The notes under the pieces: model-generated
The model's input: only the letters and a program-made list of their open reading frames with translations
What the model was told of the DNA's origin: nothing
Database searches by the model: none
Position numbers and translations under genes: made by a program
Shown here: positions 1-27,890 of the stretch, one piece after another
Numbering within the stretch: the first letter of the stretch is position 1
Layout of the letters: every line of letters begins with the position of its first letter
DNA from: Escherichia coli
GTDB lineage: Bacteria > Pseudomonadota > Gammaproteobacteria > Enterobacterales > Enterobacteriaceae
Direction: 5' to 3' (one strand)
Length of the DNA stretch: 64,000 bases
Assembly: GCF_044324875.1 (NCBI RefSeq)
Contig: NZ_CP172185.1

Positions 1-1725
<1,725 letters not shown>

Positions 1726-1793
1726 GTCTGAATCCGGCCGACCCAAAATTTTCCCCCAAGCTTCTCCCGGTATCTTTTAAGAGTATTGATTAC

Positions 1794-3002
1794 ATGAACG
1801 ACACCGTTTTAAACGTAATCCCGGTGCCTGTACGCACTTGGGTGGCTATAGCAGCGCTCGGTATCAGTGCATTTTCGATTGTGACCAGCGAGCTTGCGCC
1901 TGTTGGCATGCTTAGTATGCTAGCAAAGGACCTGAACCAGACTGAATCGGACACGGACCTTGTCGTGACTGCATACGGCTGGGTTGGGGCTCTGGCAGCA
2001 CTTTTGTCTGGATTGATACCAGCGAGAATTTCACGTAAGTCTTTGTTAGTGACTCTTATGGTAGTGTTTGCTTTGTCTTGTGTGGCGGCGACACAGTCAT
2101 CACTCGATGACCCTATTTATGGGGGCGCGTATGACAGGCGCTTTAGCACATGGTGCTTTCTGGGCTTTGATTGGAGCAGTGGCTTCACAGCTTGTTCCGG
2201 CTGAAAAACTAGGACTGGCCACCTCAGTTATTTTTGGCGGCGTTTCGGCTGCCAGCGTTCTGGGTGTGCCACTGTCGAGTTTTATTGCGGATATGGCCGG
2301 GTGGCGGAGTGCGTTTACGGCGATTTCTCTGCTGTCACTTGCCGCCGCCTGTGCTCTATTCTGGACGCTCCCCACACTGACGGTGCCACAACCACTGAGG
2401 CTGCGTGTTTACTACGGGATATTCAAAAACCCGGTGCTCCTTTCCCTCTATGGTGCCACTGCCTGTATTATTTCGGCTCATTTTGCGGCATTCACTTACC
2501 TCCAACCACTACTGACGAAGACTCAGGAAGTACCGACGGCTTCGATTTCTGGCCTACTGCTGATGTCCGGGCTCTCCGGTCTGGCCGGAAATATCATTGC
2601 CGGAAAGCTGATCGACCGTCATATCAAAGGGCTGATTTTCGCTTCACTGCTCCTGAGCGCAGGTGCGCTCGGCATACTTGGTATGAGGAGCGCTGCACCA
2701 CTGCCTTTCTGGTTCACAGGCATACTGCTCGCAGTTTGGGGCGCGGGTATCGCCATTGTATTCGTTGGGTTGCAGACAGGTTGCTCCGTAGCGCCGGGGA
2801 TGCTGTACAACCGGCGTCAGCCATTTACGTTACAATTTTTAACGCAGCGATCGGCACCGGTGCGCTTGTGGGAGGCCAGGTATTAGCCGTAAAAGGTATT
2901 CAGGGTATGGCCTTACTTGCTGCGGGCATCATTGCATGCAGCATAGCTCTGGTCGCAATGCTGAAAAGCCCCGCGAATAAGCTCAGGCCTGAAAGGTCGT
3001 GA
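1794..3002 (+). pseudogene. MFS-type efflux transporter gene disrupted by two apparent frameshifts
   Basis: Three overlapping ORFs (1722..2204, 2068..2886, 2301..3002) in alternating frames each encode hydrophobic MFS-like segments; frame switches near 2100 and near 2815. Confidence 0.6.
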
Positions 3003-3370
3003 CGAATTCAAAAACGCATTAACCGACAGTAATTAAATGAGAGGGACGTGTCAGAAGAGGCTTCCCCTTATTTTATACGTCCAGTTCGGTAAAGAGTATT
3101 AGCCCACAGGACGAGGCTTATCCGAAACTACAACTCTGAAGGATTTAGTTAATCGCTTTAGAATTTCCAACTTCCGTTCCTCGCTCACAGCAGACCTTAA
3201 GATCTAGGAGGGAGTCCGCTCAGTGCCATGGGCGGACCTTAAGCTTCAGTAATTTGATTAGCACAATCCCTATGATAAATAGACTGGCCCCCTGAATCTC
3301 CAGACAACCAGTATCACTTAAATAAGTGATAGTCTTAATACTAGTTTTTAGACTAGTCATTGGAGAACAG

Positions 3371-3736
3371 ATGATTGATGTCTTAGGGCCGGAGAAACGC
3401 AGACGGCGTACCACACAGGAAAAGATCGCAATTGTTCAGCAGAGCTTTGAACCGGGGATGACGGTCTCCCTCGTTGCCCGGCAACATGGTGTAGCAGCCA
3501 GCCAGTTATTTCTCTGGCGTAAGCAATACCAGGAAGGAAGTCTTACTGCTGTCGCCGCCGGAGAACAGGTTGTTCCTGCCTCTGAACTTGCTGCCGCCAT
3601 GAAGCAGATTAAAGAACTCCAGCGCCTGCTCGGCAAGAAAACGATGGAAAATGAACTCCTCAAAGAAGCCGTTGAATATGGACGGGCAAAAAAGTGGATA
3701 GCGCACGCGCCCTTATTGCCCGGGGATGGGGAGTAA
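3371..3736 (+). CDS. insC: IS2 transposase OrfA (InsC)
   Basis: 121-aa product [41 protein letters not shown]... matches IS2 InsC. Confidence 0.9.
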
Positions 3737-4599
3737 GCTTAGTCAGCCGTTGTCTCCGGGTCTCACGTGCGCAACTGCATGCCATGGCCCGTCGGTCGAA
3801 GGACTGGCAGGATCGTCGGTGCAAGCGCAAGCCTGATGATACTGACGCGCTGGCCCGTATCCATACCGTTATCGGCGATCTGCCCACCTATGGTTATCGT
3901 CGGGTATGGGCACTGCTGCGCAGACAATCAGAAACTGACGACATGGCGGTGATCAATGCCAAACGCGTATACCGCATCATGCGTCAGAATGCGCTGCTGC
4001 TTGAGCGTAAACCGGAAATACCGCCATCGAAGCGGGCGCATACAGGGAAAGTGGCCGTTGGAGAAAGTAACCAGCGGTGGTGCTCTGACGGCTTCGAGTT
4101 CAGCTGTGATAACGGTGAAAAACTGCGGGTCACGTTCGCTCTGGACTGTTGCGATCGCGAGGCACTTTACTGGGCGGCCAGTAACGGTGGATATGACAGT
4201 GAAACCGTGCAGGACGTCATGCTGGGTGCCGTGGAGCGTCGTTTCGGTAACAGCCTGCCGACATCCCCAGTTGAGTGGCTGACAGACAACGGTTCAGCCT
4301 ACCGTTCTTATCAGACGCGTCAGTTCGCCAGAATGGTAGGACTGGAGCCTAAACATACGGCGGTACGTAGCCCGGAAAGCAACGGGATGGCAGAGAGCTT
4401 CGTGAAAACGATGAAGCGCGATTACATCAGCATCATGCCGAAACCCGACGGGTTAACAGCGGTAAAGAACCTTGCGGAGGCCTTCGAACATTACAACGAA
4501 TGGCATCCGCATAGTGCACTGGGGTATCGTTCGCCACGGGAATATCTGCGGCGGCGAACCAGTAATGGGTTAAGTGATAAAAAGTGTATGGAAATATAG
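3694..4599 (+). CDS. insD: IS2 transposase OrfB (InsD), DDE integrase core
   Basis: 301-aa ORF overlapping insC in a different frame (programmed frameshift arrangement); sequence matches IS2 InsD. Confidence 0.9.
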
Positions 4600-4610
4600 G
4601 GGCCAATCCA

Positions 4611-4967
4611 ATTGCACTGTTTCGAGGCTATCCGGCGACGATAAGAACTGACCAGGGGCCGGAGTTCACTTGCCGTGCACTGGATCAATGGGCCTTTGAG
4701 CATGGTGTTGAGTTGCGCTTAATCCAGCCGGGCAAGCCAACGCAGAACGGATTTATTGAGAGCTTTAACGGACGATTTCGCGATGAATGTTTGAATGAGC
4801 TCTGGTTCAGCGATATCGTTCATGCCAGGAAAATTATTAATGACTGGCGGCAGGATTATAACGAATGCCGCCCGCACTCCACGCTGAATTATCAGACACT
4901 GTCTGAATTTGCAGCGGGCTGGAGAAAGGGTCATTCTGAGAATGAAGATTCCGACGTTACTAACTGA
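4611..4967 (+). pseudogene. C-terminal remnant of an IS3-family transposase (OrfB), 5' part absent or replaced by IS2
   Basis: Frame continuing from the IS2 right end encodes ...[58 protein letters not shown]...RPHSTLNY, the conserved C-terminal part of an IS3-family DDE transposase. Confidence 0.7.
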
Positions 4968-4980
4968 GTGTTGTATCTAA

Positions 4981-5646
4981 TCGTGGGGGCAGGTCACAGC
5001 TATACGGACACGGTCAAATAGAGCACTTGCTATAACTGATCTTAAACATCCTAAATTTGATGTTAGAGTTCAGATACATAGTTCTGCCGCAAGGTATGCA
5101 GATAAGTTAGCTGCTGAAATAGTTTCAGCATATTATGATAACTCTGAGCTGGCATATGAAAGCGATTCTCCGTTTCAATTTGGTGTTATTCGAGTTCCTC
5201 GTAACGCTACTCACTTTGAGCATTCATTATATGAAAAGTACTCAGGACTTAATAAGTTCGAGGCTCCTTTTGCTGAGGCTTTAGATAGGTCTGGTTACCC
5301 TTGGCACAGAAACCTGAGCAGTGGCGGTTTTCATATCCCACTATTGACAGAGGGTGATACAAGCTCATTTTATCCAGACTTTTTAGTATGGAAGTCAGAC
5401 CTTGTCTATTGCCTTGATACCAAGGGGGGCCATCTATTGACTGCTGCCGTAGCGCGCAAGCTTTTTAATATTCATGAAGATGGTCGGAGTAAGATTCTAG
5501 TGAGATTTATCACAGAAGGAAAGCAGACAGAGCTGCGCGGCAAAGCAACAAAGGGAGGATATACTGTATGGAAAATGAAATCTGGGCATCCTACCCCAAT
5601 TTATGTGGCGGATTTAGACAAAGCTGTTAGGGAATGTCTAAAATAG
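4981..5646 (+). pseudogene. 3' fragment of a gene of unknown function with a PD-(D/E)xK-like motif; no in-frame start for its first ~120 codons
   Basis: Frame is open from the stop at 4978..4980 to 5646 but has no ATG/GTG/TTG until 5344; translation contains YPDFLVWKSDLVYCLDTKG (PD...DxK spacing typical of restriction-endonuclease-fold nucleases). Lies immediately after the IS3-family remnant. Confidence 0.4.
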
Positions 5647-5787
5647 CGAAGCCATAGCATAGAATTTTTAATGGCATTATGATCAGGACATAAAGGACTT
5701 CATGCAGGGAAAAAATATCCCAAAAGAAACTGGTCATGTCAGCACACCAAAGGATCCTCGCCGGATCCTTTGGTTTTTCTCAGCCAC

Positions 5788-5830
5788 AATCGCTTAACGT
5801 GAGTTTTCGTTCCACTGAGCGTCAGACCCC
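5788..5830. other. 43-bp segment nearly identical to the region just upstream of the ColE1/pMB1-type replication origin RNAs
   Basis: AATCGCTTAACGTGAGTTTTCGTTCCACTGAGCGTCAGACCCC differs at one position from the pBR322/pUC sequence AATCCCTTAACGTGAGTTTTCGTTCCACTGAGCGTCAGACCCC as I recall it; flanks diverge. Confidence 0.4.
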
Positions 5831-5905
5831 TATAAACACCTTAGTGAAGTCATCCTCGCAGGTAAGGCAACACATCCGTAAGGTATTTGGCCAAATCAAA
5901 TACAA

Positions 5906-6901
5906 CTAGATTGACTCGCGGGGAAGCCAGGGACTCTCAACTATCACTTTATCCCGGTGGGTGTCACCATTGATAATGTGCAGTGTACTTAAGCGCCCAA
6001 TTTCATAATGCGGTAGCTGGACCGTGGATAATGGGGGTAAAAATAAGTTTCCAATGCCTACAAGATTGTCATAGCCAAGAACGGCAATATCCTGTGGGAT
6101 TCTGATACCCTGCGTTAACAATGTTTGATACACCATAAATGCAATACGATCGTTACCACAGATGACCGAATCAAATCGCGGTTTCCCCTGTTCGATATGC
6201 GCCAGCAACATCTCCGGAATATCTCGGTAGTGCTCATCGCCGAATTGCATATAGCAGTGCTCAAGCGTATCAGGATCGATACTGGCTTCCCTGCAGGCGC
6301 GATCAAGCCCACGACGACGACGACGCGTCGCCAGATGGTTGACGGGTAAATGCAGGCATAGAGGGCGGCTGTATCCTGCTGCCAGCAGTGCCTGTACGGC
6401 CGTATACTGGCCATGTTCATCGTCAGGTATATAGCTGGCAACCGGCTCTCCCTTGTTCTCGCAGTTGGCCAGAACGCAAGGAAGCTCCAGTAACCGGGGA
6501 GGAATACTGACTTCACGCAGCCCCATGGTAGTAAAAATGATCCCCCCGGGTCGATGGGCGAGCAGCAGGTCGACAATATCGTCAGGATTATCATCGGTAA
6601 ACATATTCACCACAAAGCTGTTCCAGCCATACGCCCGCGCGGTTTCTTCAATAGACAGCGTGATTTCTACTGAAAAAGGAGTGGTGACCGTATCCAGCGC
6701 AAGCACACCAATCGTTTTGTTCCGGGTGCCAACACGACGAATCTGCTGGGCAGAAAGGTCTGGCACATAATTTAACTGCGTGATCGCCTCCTGCACCCGA
6801 GCCAGAGTCTCAGGCTTTACGCGTTTCGGGTCATTCAGCACCCGTGAAACCGTCATGAGCGATACATTGGCCAGTTTGGCCACATCCTTTAAAGACGCCA
6901 T
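5906..6901 (-). CDS. fosR: LacI/GalR-family repressor, CscR-like (FosR-like), divergent from the transporter operon
   Basis: 331 aa; N-terminal HTH MASLKDVAKLANVSLMTVSRVLN; strong similarity across its length to the E. coli sucrose repressor CscR from memory; gene symbol by recalled synteny with the fos locus. Confidence 0.75.
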   Translation of the reverse strand: MASLKDVAKLANVSLMTVSRVLNDPKRVKPETLARVQEAITQLNYVPDLSAQQIRRVGTRNKTIGVLALDTVTTPFSVEITLSIEETARAYGWNSFVVNMFTDDNPDDIVDLLLAHRPGGIIFTTMGLREVSIPPRLLELPCVLANCENKGEPVASYIPDDEHGQYTAVQALLAAGYSRPLCLHLPVNHLATRRRRRGLDRACREASIDPDTLEHCYMQFGDEHYRDIPEMLLAHIEQGKPRFDSVICGNDRIAFMVYQTLLTQGIRIPQDIAVLGYDNLVGIGNLFLPPLSTVQLPHYEIGRLSTLHIINGDTHRDKVIVESPWLPRESI

Positions 6902-7033
6902 AGTTTTCCATTATCTGAATGCATACACCCGGTAAGGTGTTGTGAGCAAATGCGAATGCCCTATTCTAGGCACGGACACCCAGGGTTATGCAGACCACTC
7001 TGATAAATTTGAGCTAGATCTCAACATTTCAAT

Positions 7034-7045
7034 GTTAACGTTAAC
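7034..7045. promoter_or_regulatory. Candidate LacI-family operator, perfect 12-bp palindrome centred on CG
   Basis: GTTAACGTTAAC is its own reverse complement; about 100 bp upstream of the transporter start, in the divergent fosR/fosT intergenic region. Confidence 0.4.
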
Positions 7046-7095
7046 TTTTGTGATTAACATCGACAAACAAATCAAAATCGAGTGTCCCCCCAAAA

Positions 7096-7109
7096 TGATA
7101 ACGTTACCA
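7096..7109. promoter_or_regulatory. Candidate LacI-family operator (TGATAACGTTACCA)
   Basis: Near-palindrome fitting the TGnAAnCGnTTnCA pattern of LacI/GalR operators; about 35 bp upstream of the transporter ATG at 7142. Confidence 0.4.
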
Positions 7110-7141
7110 TATTAGCATATCCTTCTTACGAGATTACGTAG

Positions 7142-8380
7142 ATGAAAAAACGGCCTACTCGAAGTTACATGCTGCTCAGCGCTCTGCTGTTCTTTTTCTT
7201 TGTGACCTGGTCCTCATCAAGTTCACTGCTCTCAATCTGGCTTCACCAGGAAGTGGGGCTAAAAGCATCGGAAACCGGCATTATTTTTTCAGTATTATCC
7301 GTCTCCGCGCTCTTCGCGCAGGTCTGTTATGGCTTTATTCAGGACCGACTTGGTCTGCGCAAACATTTGTTATGGTTTATCACCGCGTTGTTGATCCTCT
7401 CCGGCCCGGCTTATCTGCTTTTTAGTTATTTGCTGAGCGTTAATATTCTGCTGGGCAGCGTATTCGGGGGCTTATTTATCGGGCTGACGTTTAATGGGGG
7501 TATCGGCGTTCTGGAGTCCTATACCGAGCGCGTCGCGCGTCAAAGTACCTTTGAGTTTGGGCGGGCACGCATGTGGGGGTCTCTGGGCTGGGCAGTTGCC
7601 ACGTTTTTTGCCGGGTTACTGTTTAATATCAACCCTGACCTTAACTTCCTGGTGGCTTCATGCTCAGGGTTAATCTTCTTCTGCCTCCTGGCCCGATTAA
7701 AGGTGGCCGCGCCGGCAAGCATGGAGAAACTCGAAATTGGCGCTAAAAAAGTTTCTCTGGAAGACGCCCTGCGTCTGCTTACTCTGCCGCGCTTCTGGGC
7801 ACTGATATTCTTCGTGGTCGGAACCTGCATTTACGGCGTATACGATCAGCAATTCCCGGTCTATTTCTCATCACAGTTCCCGACATTACGCGAAGGGAAC
7901 GAGATGTTTGGCTATTTAAACTCTTTCCAGGTCTTTCTCGAGGCCGCAGGTATGTTTTGTGCGCCGTGGCTGGTTAATCGCATTGGTGCTAAAAATGGTC
8001 TGATATTCGCAGGAATGGTGATGGCGCTGCGCATGATTACTTCAGGGCTGGTGGAAGGCCCCCTGCTTATCTCCATTACCAAACTGCTTCACGCGGTCGA
8101 ACTGCCAATATTGTTAGTCGCCATATTTAAATACAACAGTCTGAATTTCGACAAACGTCTCTCCTCCACCATTTATCTGGTGGGATTTGCCTGCACCAGC
8201 TCCGTCATTGGTACCGTATTGTCCCCGCTGGCAGGCTTTAGCTATGAGAGATTTGGCTTCGCCCAATCCTATCTGATCATGGGCATCATGGTGTTCAGCA
8301 CCACGTTTATTTCCATTTTCCTTTTGCGCTCAACTAAATCCTCATCTGAGCCATCTTTTCTGCAGCAAAAAGCTGTGTAA
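7142..8380 (+). CDS. fosT: Oligosaccharide:H+ symporter, MFS (LacY/CscB-like)
   Basis: 412 aa, 12-TM hydrophobic profile, similar to CscB sucrose permease (…FQVFLEA…, …KLLHAVELP…); first gene of a tightly spaced operon. Confidence 0.8.
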   Translation: MKKRPTRSYMLLSALLFFFFVTWSSSSSLLSIWLHQEVGLKASETGIIFSVLSVSALFAQVCYGFIQDRLGLRKHLLWFITALLILSGPAYLLFSYLLSVNILLGSVFGGLFIGLTFNGGIGVLESYTERVARQSTFEFGRARMWGSLGWAVATFFAGLLFNINPDLNFLVASCSGLIFFCLLARLKVAAPASMEKLEIGAKKVSLEDALRLLTLPRFWALIFFVVGTCIYGVYDQQFPVYFSSQFPTLREGNEMFGYLNSFQVFLEAAGMFCAPWLVNRIGAKNGLIFAGMVMALRMITSGLVEGPLLISITKLLHAVELPILLVAIFKYNSLNFDKRLSSTIYLVGFACTSSVIGTVLSPLAGFSYERFGFAQSYLIMGIMVFSTTFISIFLLRSTKSSSEPSFLQQKAV

Positions 8381-8399
8381 TGTACTGAGAATAAAGACG

Positions 8400-9833
8400 A
8401 TGACATCCTTATTAGAACAGGCTGAACAGGTGCTTGAAAAAGCACAATCCGGGATTAATCCGCGCTGGTATCCGCGCTATCACCTCGCCCCTCGCGCAGG
8501 CTGGATGAATGATCCTAATGGCCTGGTATGGTTTGACGGCTGGTATCACGCCTTTTATCAACACCATCCCTACTCCCCGAAATGGGGTCCGATGCACTGG
8601 GGGCACGCCCGAAGCAAAGATCTGGTGCATTGGGAACATTTGCCCGTCGCGCTAGCGCCGGAAGGCCCGGCGGACAAAGACGGCTGTTTCTCAGGTTCCG
8701 CCGTGGTGGACGGCGATACGCTGGCGCTCATCTATACCGGACATAAATTTCACGGCCCGTCGGACACTGACGACAACCTCTACCAGGTGCAGTGTCTGGC
8801 GACCAGTCGTGACGGCATCCATTTTGAACGGCACGGCAAGGTGATTGATACACCGCCCGGACTGCATCACTTTCGCGATCCGAAGGTGTGGCGCGAAGGT
8901 GAGTTCTGGTACATGGTTGTCGGTTCCCGCGTGGAAAATACCGGTCAGGTGCGCCTGTACCGTTCCACCGATCTCCGCGAATGGCATGACGAAGGTATTT
9001 TCGCCGAGGCTGATGAAGGCAAGGGCTTTATGTGGGAATGCCCGGATTTCTTCCCCCTGGGAGAGAAGCGTGTCCTGATGTTCTCGCCGCAGGGCATGGC
9101 GGCGGAAGGGTATCACTATCGCAACCTGTTCCAGAGCGGTTATTTACTTGGGGACTGGCAGCCAGGTCAACCGTTCACCCACAGCGGACAATTTACTGAG
9201 CTGGACCACGGCCACGACTTTTATGCCCCGCAGAGTTTCCTGACCCCGGATGGCCGACGCATTGTCATCGGGTGGCTGGATATGTGGGAATCATCGATGC
9301 CCGAACAGCAGGATGGCTGGGCCGGAATGCTCTCGCTTCCTCGCGAATTAAGCCTTGTCGATGGTCGTGTGAGAATGAAACCTGCTGCCGAAGTGACCGC
9401 GCTGCGTGGCAGCTATTATCCCACGCCCGTCCGCTGTCTGAACAATCAGAACGTCCTTGTCGCGGCAAATGCCGACGCGGTCGAAGTTCAGTTGGCATGG
9501 GATTTGAGCGCATCGACGGCTGAACAGTTTGGTATCGCGTTGGGCGACGGGTTGAGAATTTACGTCGATGATCAGGCTGGGCGTCTGGTGGTGGAGCGCC
9601 GCTATCCGGAATATTCGCTGGAAGGCACTCGCAGTATTCCGCTTCCAGCAGACAGCGTTCTGTCACTGCGAATTTTTATTGACCGCTCATCGGTGGAAGT
9701 TTTTGTTAACGATGGTGACGCTTGCTTAAGCAGTCGTATTTATCCGCAGCCGGGCGAGCGTGATATTTCATTGTTTGCAAATCTGGGGAAGGCCTCATTA
9801 TACGATGCGGGATACTGGTCTTTAGATAAATAA
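8400..9833 (+). CDS. fosGH1: GH32 beta-fructofuranosidase / sucrose-6-phosphate hydrolase-like, no signal peptide (cytoplasmic)
   Basis: 477 aa with GH32 motifs WMNDPNGL, FRDPKV and WECPD; 19 bp after fosT. Confidence 0.8.
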   Translation: MTSLLEQAEQVLEKAQSGINPRWYPRYHLAPRAGWMNDPNGLVWFDGWYHAFYQHHPYSPKWGPMHWGHARSKDLVHWEHLPVALAPEGPADKDGCFSGSAVVDGDTLALIYTGHKFHGPSDTDDNLYQVQCLATSRDGIHFERHGKVIDTPPGLHHFRDPKVWREGEFWYMVVGSRVENTGQVRLYRSTDLREWHDEGIFAEADEGKGFMWECPDFFPLGEKRVLMFSPQGMAAEGYHYRNLFQSGYLLGDWQPGQPFTHSGQFTELDHGHDFYAPQSFLTPDGRRIVIGWLDMWESSMPEQQDGWAGMLSLPRELSLVDGRVRMKPAAEVTALRGSYYPTPVRCLNNQNVLVAANADAVEVQLAWDLSASTAEQFGIALGDGLRIYVDDQAGRLVVERRYPEYSLEGTRSIPLPADSVLSLRIFIDRSSVEVFVNDGDACLSSRIYPQPGERDISLFANLGKASLYDAGYWSLDK

Positions 9834-15393: not shown

Positions 15394-15454
15394 TTACTGA
15401 TTTAGTGTATGATGGTGATTTTAAGTAAGCGACTCGTCAGAACCGTATTGATAT

Positions 15455-17026
15455 TTACTGAGAGCTCAGATCAACTTTCCAGGGCAACAGATCGCGTACC
15501 CGGTTTGCCGGCCAGTCCTGGATATGTTCAATGACGTAACGCAGCCACTTTTCTGGCTCCACATTGTTCAGACGGCATGTGCCGATCAGCGAGTACAACA
15601 CCGCCGCATGTTCACCACCGCTGTCGGAACCCGCGAACATCCAGTTTTTCCGGCCTACGGCCACTCCCCGTAAGGCGTTCTCTGCGATGTTGTTGTCGAT
15701 TTCCACCCAGCCATTACTGCAGTACACGTTCAGTGCATCCCACTGTTTCAGCAGGTATGCGAACGCTTTTGCCGTATCTGAGTGACGCGACAGTGTTTTC
15801 ATCTGTTGCTGTATCCAGTCATACAGTGACTGCATCAGTGGCGCGGCTCTGGCTTTTCTTGCCGCCAGACGCTGTTCTGCTGAACAGCCCCGGACCTCTG
15901 CCTCGATGGCATACAGTTCACCGATACGCTGCAGGGCTTCCGTGGTGATGTAGGTGGGCGCTCTTGCATGCACATCGTGGATTTTTCTCCGGGCATGAGC
16001 CATACACGCGGCTTCCGTTATTCTGCCGGATTCGTATAACGCCCGGTAACCACCGTAAGCATCGGCCTGAAGCACACCGCTGTAACCGGCCAGGTGATTT
16101 TGTGGATGGATACCTTTCCGGTCCGGACTGTACGCGAACCAGACCGCCGGGGGCATCTGTGAACCGGCGTTACGGTCATCACGGACGTAGACCCACAGCC
16201 GGGCTGTCCGGGTTTTACCGCTGCCCGGCTCCTGGACCGGGACGGGGATATCATCAGCATGGACTTTACCGGGCATCAGCACATACTGGCGCAGGACGTC
16301 ATACAGCGGCTCCAGCAGTTCAGCAACAGCACCTGTCCAGCGCCCCAGTGTGGCACGGCTCAGCTCCACTCCCTGACGACGGTATATTTCTGACTGGCGG
16401 TATAACGGCAGATGGTCTGCATATTTCCCGGTGACAACATGGGCCAGAAGCCCCGCTCCGGCATAACTGCGTGCAATGGGTTTTGAAGGTACTGGTGCCT
16501 GCACGATATGGTCGCACCGGCAACAGGCCTGTTTCGGACGTTGTGTTTCGATAACCTTAAAGGCGCTGCTGATAAGCTCCAGTTGCTCTGACACATCACA
16601 TCCCAGAGAACTGAGTTCACCACCACAGGCAGGACAGCATTCCTCTTCCGGCCGGATAACCCGGGTTTCACGGGGAAGTGAGGCCGGTAACGGTTTACGG
16701 GCTGAAGACTGGCGCAGGGCGGATGGCAGTACCGGGTCATATTGCTCACCCAGCGTTTCCGCCATTTCTTCCTGAAGTGCGCTGATTCGCTCCTGTGCTT
16801 CCTGTATCTGCCGTTCGGTTTTTGCACGAAGTTTTTCTGAGCTTTTACCGAACTGCATACGTTGCAGTTTCGCAACCAGCGCCTTCAGCCGGTTGATTTC
16901 GGAAGCATAAGCCGCCACCCGCTGTGAGAGCAGGCGGTTGTATTCAGCCATCTGGCGGATGGTGTCCTGTTGCGTCTGCAACAGTGCCCGCAGGCGGGCG
17001 TTCTCATGAGCAAGTGAGGTGTCCAT
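15455..17026 (-). CDS. tnpC: IS66-family transposase TnpC
   Basis: 523 aa with N-terminal coiled-coil/leucine-zipper region, CxxC zinc motif and DDE core typical of IS66 transposases. Confidence 0.85.
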
Positions 17027-17045
17027 ATCCTCACTTTACAACGGG

Positions 17046-17393
17046 TTATATGCGGATTCCAGCGCGTTCCGTTCGTTTCGGGTGCTTCCAGTTGATACCT
17101 TCAAGAAGCATGGATAACTGAGCCGGAGTAAGGTGCACCTTGCCGTCACGGGTGACTGGCCAGACGAAGCGGCCCCGCTCCAGGCGTTTGGTGAAGAGGC
17201 ACAGTCCGTCACTGTCAGCCCACAACACTTTTATCTGGTCACCCCGGCGTCCGCGGAAGATGAACAGGTGTCCGGAGAACGGGTCATCCTTCAGGACGTT
17301 CTGAACTTTTGATGCCAGGCCGTTAAAGCCATTTCGCATATCGGTGATACCTGCAACCAGCCAGATACGCGAACCTGCAGGGAGAGATATCAT
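17046..17393 (-). CDS. tnpB: IS66-family Orf2 (TnpB)
   Basis: 115 aa; MISLPAGSRIWLVAGITDMRNGFNGL... is the conserved IS66 Orf2. Confidence 0.85.
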   Translation of the reverse strand: MISLPAGSRIWLVAGITDMRNGFNGLASKVQNVLKDDPFSGHLFIFRGRRGDQIKVLWADSDGLCLFTKRLERGRFVWPVTRDGKVHLTPAQLSMLLEGINWKHPKRTERAGIRI

Positions 17394-18070
17394 CAGTGGC
17401 TGCTCCCTTTTATTTCGCGGATAAGTGTCTGTAATAACGCCGGCGTCAGTTTACCTTTAAGCCTGAGAGTTCCGGCCGGCAGAACCAGCTCACAACACAG
17501 ACTGTCGGACGGTGTATTTATCTGCTCTGGTTCCTGTGCGGGGGCCGGGATTTTATTATCCGGCTCCGGCGTTAACGTCACGGGAAGCAGTGCCGGCATA
17601 TTTTTTCCGGAAGGCAGCAGGCCACCTTTCCGGTATTGATGGCGCCAGTTGAAGAGCAGGTTATCGTTGATTCCGTTTTCCCGGGCGATCTGCGCCACAC
17701 AGGCTCCGGGCTGCAGTGACTGCTCCACTAAGGCGATTTTAAACTCATAAGGGAAGTTGGGCCGCCGGGGACGTTTTTTTACCACGGGGGCTTCGGATAT
17801 AACGGTGCTTTCAGGACGTACGACTGGTACCGTGGAAAATTGTCCGTAAAGGCAGGCATCAAGTTCCTGCTCCGACATGCCTGCGGGCAAAGGCCACGAA
17901 AGGCCAGCTCTCCGAAAGCGCACGAACATACTACAAACTGTTGATTTTGGTACACCCAGGCGACGCCCGGCCACAACCCGGGGTAAATGTTCTTCAAAGT
18001 GAAGACGTAAAGCTTCAGTGATCCAGGTCCGGTGTTTCATACGATAGTGTCCATTAAAAATGATGGACAT
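17393..18070 (-). CDS. tnpA: IS66-family accessory protein (TnpA); true start uncertain, probably internal
   Basis: ORF immediately upstream of and overlapping tnpB (ATGA overlap) in the canonical IS66 arrangement. Confidence 0.6.
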   Translation of the reverse strand: MSIIFNGHYRMKHRTWITEALRLHFEEHLPRVVAGRRLGVPKSTVCSMFVRFRRAGLSWPLPAGMSEQELDACLYGQFSTVPVVRPESTVISEAPVVKKRPRRPNFPYEFKIALVEQSLQPGACVAQIARENGINDNLLFNWRHQYRKGGLLPSGKNMPALLPVTLTPEPDNKIPAPAQEPEQINTPSDSLCCELVLPAGTLRLKGKLTPALLQTLIREIKGSSH

Positions 18071-18140
18071 TATTTTTGTAGAGCCGGAGGAAACAGACCA
18101 GACGGTTTAAATGAGCCGGTTACGATTTTAAGGTGCTTGC

Positions 18141-27795: not shown

Positions 27796-27890
27796 TGGCG
27801 GAAGATCACAGGAGTCGAACCTGCCCGGGACCGCTGGCGGCCCCAACTGGATTTGAAGTCCAGCCGCCTCACCGGAGACGACGATCTTCC
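27796..27890 (-). tRNA. selC: tRNA-Sec (selenocysteine), anticodon UCA
   Basis: Minus-strand sequence GGAAGATCGTCGTCTCCGGTGAGGCGGCTGGACTTCAAATCCAGTTGGGGCCGCCAGCGGTCCCGGGCAGGTTCGACTCCTGTGATCTTCCGCCA matches E. coli selC; long variable arm. Confidence 0.95.

Follow-up and report, generated by a model that had tools for sequence, protein, structure and literature searches.

A chimera of IS2 and an ISEc27-type element at the junction of two selC island arms in Escherichia coli

How did a complete insertion sequence (IS) come to lie directly against the truncated transposase gene of another element, with different 5-bp sequences on its two sides? This question is raised by positions 3280-4967 of the 64,000-nucleotide stretch of Escherichia coli DNA analyzed here in its entirety (hereafter, the window). 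A sequence-only reading of the locus described a complete 1331-bp IS2 that abuts the C-terminal 119 codons of a different IS3-family transposase, and argued for a deletion or a recombination between IS copies, as opposed to a simple insertion. Here, we report the identity and structure of the element, the provenance of the DNA on each side of it, and its distribution among genomes, and weigh the explanations that these data allow.

The element occupies positions 3280-4610 on the forward strand, is 1331 bp long, belongs to the IS2 group and retains both terminal inverted repeats. Its left end reads TAGACTGGCCCCC... and its right end ...GGGGCCAATCCA (in a longer reading of the termini, the element starts with TAGACTGGCCCCCTGAATCTCCAGACA and finishes with ...ATATAGGGGCCAATCCA), and both ends align base-for-base with those of IS2 and of ISEc27-type copies. 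The names of the insertion sequences, namely, IS2, ISEc27, ISEc36 and ISSen4, are used throughout as they appear in the RefSeq/PGAP annotation, not as ISfinder reference sequences. The first of the two genes, orfA (3371-3736, forward strand), is an IS2 allele encoding a 121-amino acid DNA-binding protein with an HTH_Tnp_1 domain (Pfam PF01527, E=1.8e-19). The second, orfB (3694-4599, forward strand), is an ISEc27-type allele of 301 codons that encodes HTH_21 and the rve and rve_3 integrase core (Pfam PF00665/PF13683/PF13276). The two genes overlap in 0/-1 phases, and orfB is reached by a -1 frameshift at an A6G slippery site at positions 3688-3694; a programmed frameshift is annotated by RefSeq in the identical gene. 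The size, the imperfect inverted repeats, the phases of orfA and orfB and the A6G motif place the element in the IS3 family, IS2 group. Because the ends, orfA, orfB and the frameshift site are all intact, the element could, judging by its sequence, still be mobile; no second copy of it was detected in any genome examined.

The 1331-bp extent given in the sequence-only reading stands, but the identification as IS2 does not. By the ISfinder convention, isoforms share at least 95% nucleotide identity over the full length; the element and K-12 IS2A share 87.5% identity and differ at 167 sites, a single one of which precedes position 483, and the element also lacks the flanking 5-bp target duplication. 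Neither is it a full-length member of the ISEc27/ISEc36 type, to which it shows 93.6% and 93.5% identity, with 85-87 differences that all fall within the first ~1000 bp, 85 of them at positions 1-474.

When these differences are mapped along the element, two blocks emerge. The left block, element positions 1-474 (3280-3753, forward strand), comprises the left inverted repeat and the whole of orfA, and differs from K-12 IS2A at a single site (position 32) but from ISEc27-type copies at 85. The right block, element positions 483-1331 (3762-4610, forward strand), which includes most of orfB and the right inverted repeat, shows no differences from the copy in strain 5270 (ISEc27 family according to PGAP) and about 166 differences from IS2. 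The 8-bp interval between the last IS2-type site, 474, and the first ISEc27-type site, 483 (element positions 475-482; 3754-3761, forward strand), lies ~20 bp past the orfA stop codon (3734-3736). IS2 and the ISEc27 type are 81% identical and are distinguished by 252 sites, of which 85, at positions 28-474, carry the IS2-type base and 166, at positions 483-1325, the ISEc27-type base, with one switch; one ISEc27-type base, at position 32, is embedded in the IS2 block. The maximum chi-square for a breakpoint, located in the same 8-bp interval, is 247.6, compared to at most 20.0 in 2000 shuffles, and, in the alignment with K-12 IS2A and the ISEc27/ISEc36-type copies, the element contains no private substitutions. 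The proteins follow the same pattern: OrfA is identical to IS2 InsC over all 121 amino acids, whereas OrfB shares 298 of 301 amino acids with the ISEc27-type copy and 253 of 301 (84%) with IS2.

The element is a two-block mosaic, not a pure IS2, and the IS2 label is wrong for two thirds of its length. It resembles IS2, as represented by K-12 IS2A, in its 1331-bp length, left inverted repeat, identical OrfA, A6G overlap and overall architecture, but differs in that positions 483-1331, including OrfB and the right inverted repeat, come from another IS species. Conversely, it matches elements of the ISEc27/ISEc36 type (PGAP names; found on chromosomes and plasmids of E. coli, Klebsiella and Citrobacter), represented by the strain 5270 copy, over positions 483-1331, and its transposase is labeled 'ISEc27 family' in RefSeq, but, unlike in those elements, the left 474 bp deviate at 85 sites, for an overall identity of 93.6%. 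A single switch of parent within the element is the signature of a crossover inside an IS, and because IS2 would have recombined with a different IS species, of the ISEc27/ISEc36 type, the outcome is an element other than IS2.

The sequences that immediately flank this hybrid, ATAAA on the left (3275-3279) and ATTGC on the right (4611-4615), form no 5-bp direct repeat, as the sequence-only reading had reported. To define the boundaries, we used as controls five other IS2-group copies, each of which has a perfect 5-bp duplication at the same boundaries: an ISEc27-type copy in strain 5270 (GTGCC), an ISEc36-type copy on plasmid pESCOTC_24 (CACCC), IS2A of K-12 (ATTAC), an IS2 in strain NDM6 (GTGTT), and an ISEc27 relative on plasmid p21AR0133C (CCTAT). 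The last of these, a 91% full-length match, was considered as a possible second mosaic and rejected, being a uniformly diverged relative of ISEc27 with its own CCTAT duplication. Since the five aligned copies pin the ends of the element, realignment cannot restore a duplication, and its absence is real; a search for a 5-bp repeat concealed by shifted IS ends, the check that the sequence-only reading itself had proposed, yielded none. The chance that the locus is a simple insertion with a misplaced boundary, or an artefact of assembly, is negligible. The former is at odds with the fixed boundaries; the latter can invoke the general difficulty of assembling repeats and nothing more, and is contradicted by the identical structure in three independent complete genomes and by a deletion derivative of it in a fourth.

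The DNA to the right of the hybrid is what remains of another insertion sequence. Positions 4611-4996 (forward strand) correspond to positions 836-1221 of the 1221-bp ISSen4, an element of the IS3 family, IS407 group, that generates 4-bp duplications. The assignment is based on sequence identity and on the retained right terminus, ...GGGGGCAGGTCA: the 386-bp remnant shares 99.5% identity with the intact copy in strain S51. Unlike intact ISSen4, it is devoid of the first 835 bp and carries two substitutions, both non-synonymous (H to L and P to L). The C-terminal part of a different IS3-family transposase accordingly does adjoin the element, although it amounts to 118 codons and a stop (4611-4967; Pfam rve_3, E=8e-30) instead of 119 codons, and the remnant outruns this open reading frame to reach the right terminus of ISSen4 at position 4996. 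Window positions 4611-5050 match several hundred E. coli genomes at 99% identity or more, and most of these matches fall inside a complete element that RefSeq names ISSen4. In strain S51, the intact 1221-bp ISSen4 occupies the same island position and has the same right flank, an arrangement found in many genomes, and it reads ...GGACAGC ATTGC ACTG.... Given that window positions 4611-4996 represent ISSen4 836-1221, the point at which the IS2-group element interrupts ISSen4 is between positions 835 and 836, and the right flank ATTGC of the element, which is ISSen4 836-840, presumably survives from the target duplication that the ISEc27-type parent generated on insertion. The 64-kb window lacks the first 835 bp of ISSen4 altogether, in agreement with the earlier observation that the left flank does not encode the missing N-terminus of the transposase, and the window contains no second IS2-group copy.

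The left side of the hybrid has a different history. Window positions 1-3279 contain IS100, a truncated aldo/keto reductase gene, a frameshifted MFS transporter gene (1722-3002, forward strand; two overlapping open reading frames), which is the last gene of a CP4-like left arm, and a 277-bp intergenic spacer downstream of it (3003-3279, forward strand). RefSeq annotates the transporter gene as 'MFS transporter, frameshifted' in LH50-c, DP051 and Z247. This region is 99.3% identical to the corresponding region of strain DP051, the match ending exactly at position 3279. In DP051, ...CCCTATGATAAA runs uninterrupted into CATGCAGTTGCAG..., toward a 1518-bp hypothetical gene, an IS30 relic and a restriction-endonuclease gene. 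The comparison with related islands that had been suggested on the basis of the sequence alone therefore yields an uninterrupted counterpart for each side of the element: the intact ISSen4 of S51 on the right and, on the left, the empty site ...GATAAA|CATGCAG... in DP051 and SCEC020001. The same empty site was identified, by coordinate adjacency, in ~25 further genomes, and exactly this site is occupied in Z247 by an ISCro1 flanked by the 8-bp duplication TGATAAAC. The left flank ATAAA is presumably one surviving copy of the target duplication that arose when the IS2 parent inserted. The sequence on the right side of the empty site is absent from the 64-kb window and does not appear among the matches listed for the three hybrid-bearing genomes. 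A small lost interval would be implied if the fragment at positions 4997-5650 encoded the end of the restriction endonuclease of DP051; this was considered and rejected, as the fragment shows no similarity to that gene and has no Pfam match.

In view of these flanks, the mosaic can also be approached through gene conversion. A pure ISEc27-type element inserted in ISSen4 could have undergone an unrelated deletion on its left and, separately, conversion of its left 474 bp by an IS2. Donors would have been abundant, with a median of 3 places matching IS2 per genome, and a patchy conversion tract could have left the ISEc27-type base at position 32 in place. However, the tract would have to stop inside the 27-bp identical terminal stretch, the deletion would still have to end precisely at the IS terminus, and two independent events would be postulated where one suffices. 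Furthermore, the IS2-type block reaches the very end of the element, which fits a crossover and not an internal conversion patch. We consider this combination of events highly improbable.

The two sides of the hybrid belong to two different types of island at the same tRNA gene, selC, which is located at window positions 27796-27890. The right arm consists of the ISSen4 remnant, a LacI regulator, an MFS transporter, GH32 enzymes, OmpG-like porins, a kinase, an integrase and selC itself. It corresponds to the fos (fructooligosaccharide) region of AGI-3 in strain BEN2908 (fos locus: PMC3325963), AGI-3 being the selC island of this avian pathogenic E. coli that carries the fos locus (Chouikha et al. 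2006, as cited in PMC12928451). This arm is 99.9% identical to the S51-type fos island arm, in which ISSen4 is intact. AGI-3 of BEN2908 contains the same hybrid IS and the same ISSen4 remnant, and its right arm is 99.96% identical to that of the window; unlike AGI-3, the window carries a further ISCro1 within its right arm, and BEN2908 has an additional IS66-family element 171 bp upstream (to the left) of the hybrid. In LH50-c, the left arm extends for 28 kb, to a rhuM relic and setC, encompasses YfjI, a GTPase, Ag43, antirestriction, RadC, YeeU/CbtA and DUF4942 genes, and represents the distal half of a CP4-like island. All the way to setC, this arm is collinear with the CP4-type selC island of strain NDM6, in the same orientation and with the same setC-side end. 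With a left arm of the CP4 type and a right arm of the S51 type, two alternative types of selC island are joined exactly at the IS. An inversion between inverted IS copies was considered and rejected, given the collinearity of the left arm with native CP4-type islands up to setC and the lack of a reciprocal junction.

The explanation that we favor, with a probability of roughly 0.78, is that one crossover between IS2 and an ISEc27-type element fused the two island arms. A true IS2 would have inserted at ...GATAAA|CATGC..., a short distance past the end of the MFS pseudogene, in the arm of a CP4-like (Ag43 and CbtA toxin-antitoxin) island on the setC side of selC, and an ISEc27/ISEc36-type element would have inserted between positions 835 and 836 of ISSen4, at the outer end of a fos (AGI-3-type) selC island. 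The two elements would then have undergone one homologous (strictly, homeologous, at 81% identity) exchange, with resolution inside element positions 475-482, to give the chimeric IS, which would have inherited the left flank and the left 474 bp from the IS2 parent, and the right 849 bp and the right flank from the ISEc27-type parent. The DNA between the parents would have been lost, and with it both the sequence that had followed the IS2 site on its right and the 5' 835 bp of ISSen4; the two arms would have become one composite selC island. The exchange may have deleted the DNA between two copies in direct orientation, carried by tandem or composite islands; alternatively, incoming DNA may have replaced an island arm through crossovers in the IS and in shared DNA on the setC side. 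We infer both parental insertions, as well as the route. One crossover would account at once for the mismatched flanks, the single switch, the loss of the 5' part of ISSen4 and the restriction of the chimera to the present locus. The flanks are those expected of a recombination product, in that they come from two different insertion sites and surround a single internal switch of parent. Thus, the argument for deletion or recombination between IS copies, made in the sequence-only reading, is supported by the flanks, the empty counterparts, the single switch and the single locus.

Distribution is where this scenario can be set against transposition of a ready-made chimera. Among 5,426 complete E. 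coli genomes, full-length matches to the element at 99.9% identity or more are present only in LH50-c, OY754364 and BEN2908, all at the present locus and all at 100%; the next best match, at 93.6%, is to copies labeled as ISEc27 or ISEc36 family, and thousands of true IS2 copies score 80-90%. The segment that spans the crossover occurs in four of the 5,426 genomes, once in each and always at the present locus. No full-length match above 93.6%, the level of the pure ISEc27 type, was found among the 5,000 best-matching plasmid records, and a 51-mer across the crossover is absent from about 100,000 species-representative genomes.

The right junction, that is, the ISEc27-type right end joined to position 836 of ISSen4, was found in exactly seven of the 5,426 genomes, with three kinds of left side. 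LH50-c, OY754364 and BEN2908 have the full hybrid with the MFS flank. In USMARC-49610, the hybrid is truncated at position 105, where it is joined to the interior of cbtA. Since cbtA and the IS are separated in LH50-c by the entire CP4-like arm, this arrangement is a secondary deletion, ~26 kb in size, in an ancestor that resembled the window. In LH85-a, JNE170426 and E100341, only the IS positions from about 494-500 onward are kept, and in this LH85-a type, the IS is fused to the apparent codon 16 of an IS66-family tnpC gene. Three left-hand partners for one right junction in seven genomes imply that the IS has been a repeated breakpoint.

We also searched for the junctions that parental or reciprocal structures would contain, namely, ISSen4 up to position 840 followed by the left end of the IS (TTCTGGACAGCATTGC+TAGACTGGCCCC) and the right end of IS2 at the MFS site (GGGGCAAATCCA+ATAAACATGCAG). 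No contiguous ISSen4...ATTGC and IS2-group left end is present in the 5,426 E. coli genomes, the nine apparent matches consisting of two pieces 410 bp apart, which we read as an unrelated nearby IS2, and the exact 32-mer of this junction is absent from the metagenome and species-representative collections. No IS2 at the GATAAA site was detected in the 5,426 genomes, where near-identical sites have no insertion, except in Z247, which carries ISCro1 there, and the k-mer expected for the right junction of IS2 at the MFS site is absent from metagenomes. The reciprocal hybrid is likewise missing from the 5,426 genomes, where the best match to it is 94.5%. Across these genomes and the junction k-mer collections, neither the occupied parental sites nor the reciprocal product turned up in relatives; the absence of the latter fits either of the two routes.

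A preformed chimera could instead have transposed as a whole into ISSen4, duplicating ATTGC, with a later deletion, promoted by the IS in adjacent DNA or produced by other means, that extended to ...GATAAA and ended exactly at the left terminus of the IS. Several observations are compatible with this sequence of events: the hybrid has intact ends and genes, and hence is possibly mobile; deletions that end in or at the IS have occurred in relatives (at position 105 in USMARC-49610, and at ~494 in LH85-a, JNE170426 and E100341); and the site at the left junction is a genuine target of transposition, used by ISCro1 in Z247. Still, we regard it as unlikely, because the chimera has no copy at any other locus in the 5,426 E. 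coli genomes, the 5,000 best-matching plasmid records or the ~100,000 species representatives, and because the mosaic and the flank mismatch would be two unrelated rarities that happen to coincide, whereas one crossover covers both. IS3-family elements move by copy-out/paste-in via a circle and, to our knowledge, are not notable for adjacent deletions.

The favored crossover itself calls for comment with respect to mechanism. At 81% identity, with a longest identical run between IS2 and the ISEc27 type of 34 bp and a switch interval of 8 bp, RecA-dependent exchange would be inefficient, and mismatch repair of heteroduplex or microhomology joining may have shaped or displaced the switch point. 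A more far-reaching idea, which we hold to be very doubtful, is that the orfA/orfB boundary of IS2-group elements is a preferred point of exchange or breakage that shuffles modules, OrfA with the left end and OrfB with the right end, between IS species, such that the chimera would be a functional new IS; a possible mechanism would be template switching during copy-out replication, as opposed to RecA recombination. Two features of the locus hint at such a hot spot, namely, a switch confined to 8 bp between partners that are 81% identical, and the endpoint of the LH85-a-type deletion at 494-500, some 15-25 bp from positions 475-482.

Events of this kind are known. In plasmids encoding KPC, recombination between copies of ISKpn25, ISKpn26 and IS26 has been traced through mismatched duplications and IS-internal variants (He et al. 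2016, PMC5142620). The present case is similar in that one IS has flanks from two insertions and variants that switch at the crossover, but differs in that the partners are two IS species, only 81% identical, and not near-identical copies, and in that the joined molecules are the arms of two chromosomal selC islands. The use of IS-internal variants to locate crossovers is thus established practice (PMC5142620), and the event proposed here is of a known kind. A literature search for the hybrid IS returned nothing relevant, and both the chimera and its role in the fusion of two selC arms appear to be undescribed in the literature covered, to which the original AGI-3 paper does not belong.

The rearrangement scar belongs to an ordinary, well-understood class, and the hybrid leaves the current understanding of IS biology unchanged. 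It does explain an oddity of annotation, the RefSeq label 'ISEc27 family' on what naively appears to be IS2. Furthermore, under the favored reading, it would show that the composite selC island of avian pathogenic E. coli arose by the joining of an arm with the fos/AGI-3 sugar-utilization genes to a CP4-like arm with Ag43 and toxin-antitoxin genes, and would provide a natural example of IS species only 81% identical serving as portable homology that joins modules of genomic islands.

The left end of the hybrid IS, a 1331-bp chimera of IS2- and ISEc27-type sequence occupying 3280-4610, abuts the motif GATAAA. This junction coincides with the target spot of an ISCro1 copy in strain Z247 (locus positions 6328-9031), whose duplication, TGATAAAC, lies in the same AT-rich spot as 3272-3279 of the window; a single site has been used by two unrelated IS families. 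The window itself carries a complete ISCro1-like IS66-family element on the minus strand at 15425-18123, in the right (fos) arm, flanked by a perfect 8-bp duplication, GATTTTAA, and absent from LH50-c, which sets the window apart as DNA of another strain. As a simple insertion, this element can usefully be contrasted with the hybrid IS nearby on the same DNA. BEN2908 has one more IS66-family element (locus positions 5184-7830), degenerate, with frameshifts and internal stops, 171 bp to the left of the hybrid IS, where the window has no counterpart.

The left, CP4-like arm of the island is heavily decayed across 157-3002. Within this segment, IS100 stands in place of the 5' end of an aldo/keto reductase gene that is longer and free of IS100 in Z247, and an MFS transporter gene has been split by a frameshift into ORFs at 1722-2204, 2068-2886 and 2301-3002.

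Inside the chimera, the otherwise IS2-type block contains a lone ISEc27-type base, a G at window position 3311 (element position 32), where the IS2 copies of K-12 and NDM6 have A; either the IS2 parent was polymorphic here, or heteroduplex repair left a short patch. Further breakpoints occur in other genomes. In LH85-a, JNE170426 and E100341 (locus positions ~6117-6170), an ISEc27-type element is cut at position ~494-500, corresponding to window ~3773-3780, and fused, with the microhomology AACTGC, to the apparent codon 16 of an IS66-family tnpC (MDISALNTTNDIEKLR). This independent breakpoint lies ~15-25 bp from the IS2/ISEc27 crossover (element positions 475-482), a proximity for which the chance expectation is about 4%. 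In USMARC-49610, the first 104 bp of the hybrid IS are missing and the rest runs into a shortened cbtA toxin gene (locus positions 5770-5780), the fusion corresponding to window position 3384; this is a secondary deletion of ~26 kb in which the whole CP4-like arm has been lost.

To the right, the ISSen4 remnant (4611-4996) differs from intact ISSen4 by two substitutions, at 4800 and 4899 (ISSen4 positions 1026 and 1125). Both are non-synonymous (H to L and P to L), consistent with decay after inactivation, and both are common to all seven genomes that bear the junction, which match at 100% over this stretch. The following segment, 4997-5650, extends to the fos regulator and contains a 100-amino acid ORF (5344-5646) with no Pfam match; the segment shows no similarity to the DP051 restriction endonuclease beyond the empty site and looks like a gene fragment.

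Islands of the S51 type carry an intact ISSen4 flanked on both sides by matching CAGC. Comparison of S51 (locus positions 6160-6170) with NDM6 (3015-3025) and LH50-c (7745-7755) places the point at which S51-type and CP4-type selC islands lose collinearity on the setC side, at the end of TTAGACCAG, no more than 1 nt from the intact element. ISSen4 itself may mark an older rearrangement breakpoint.
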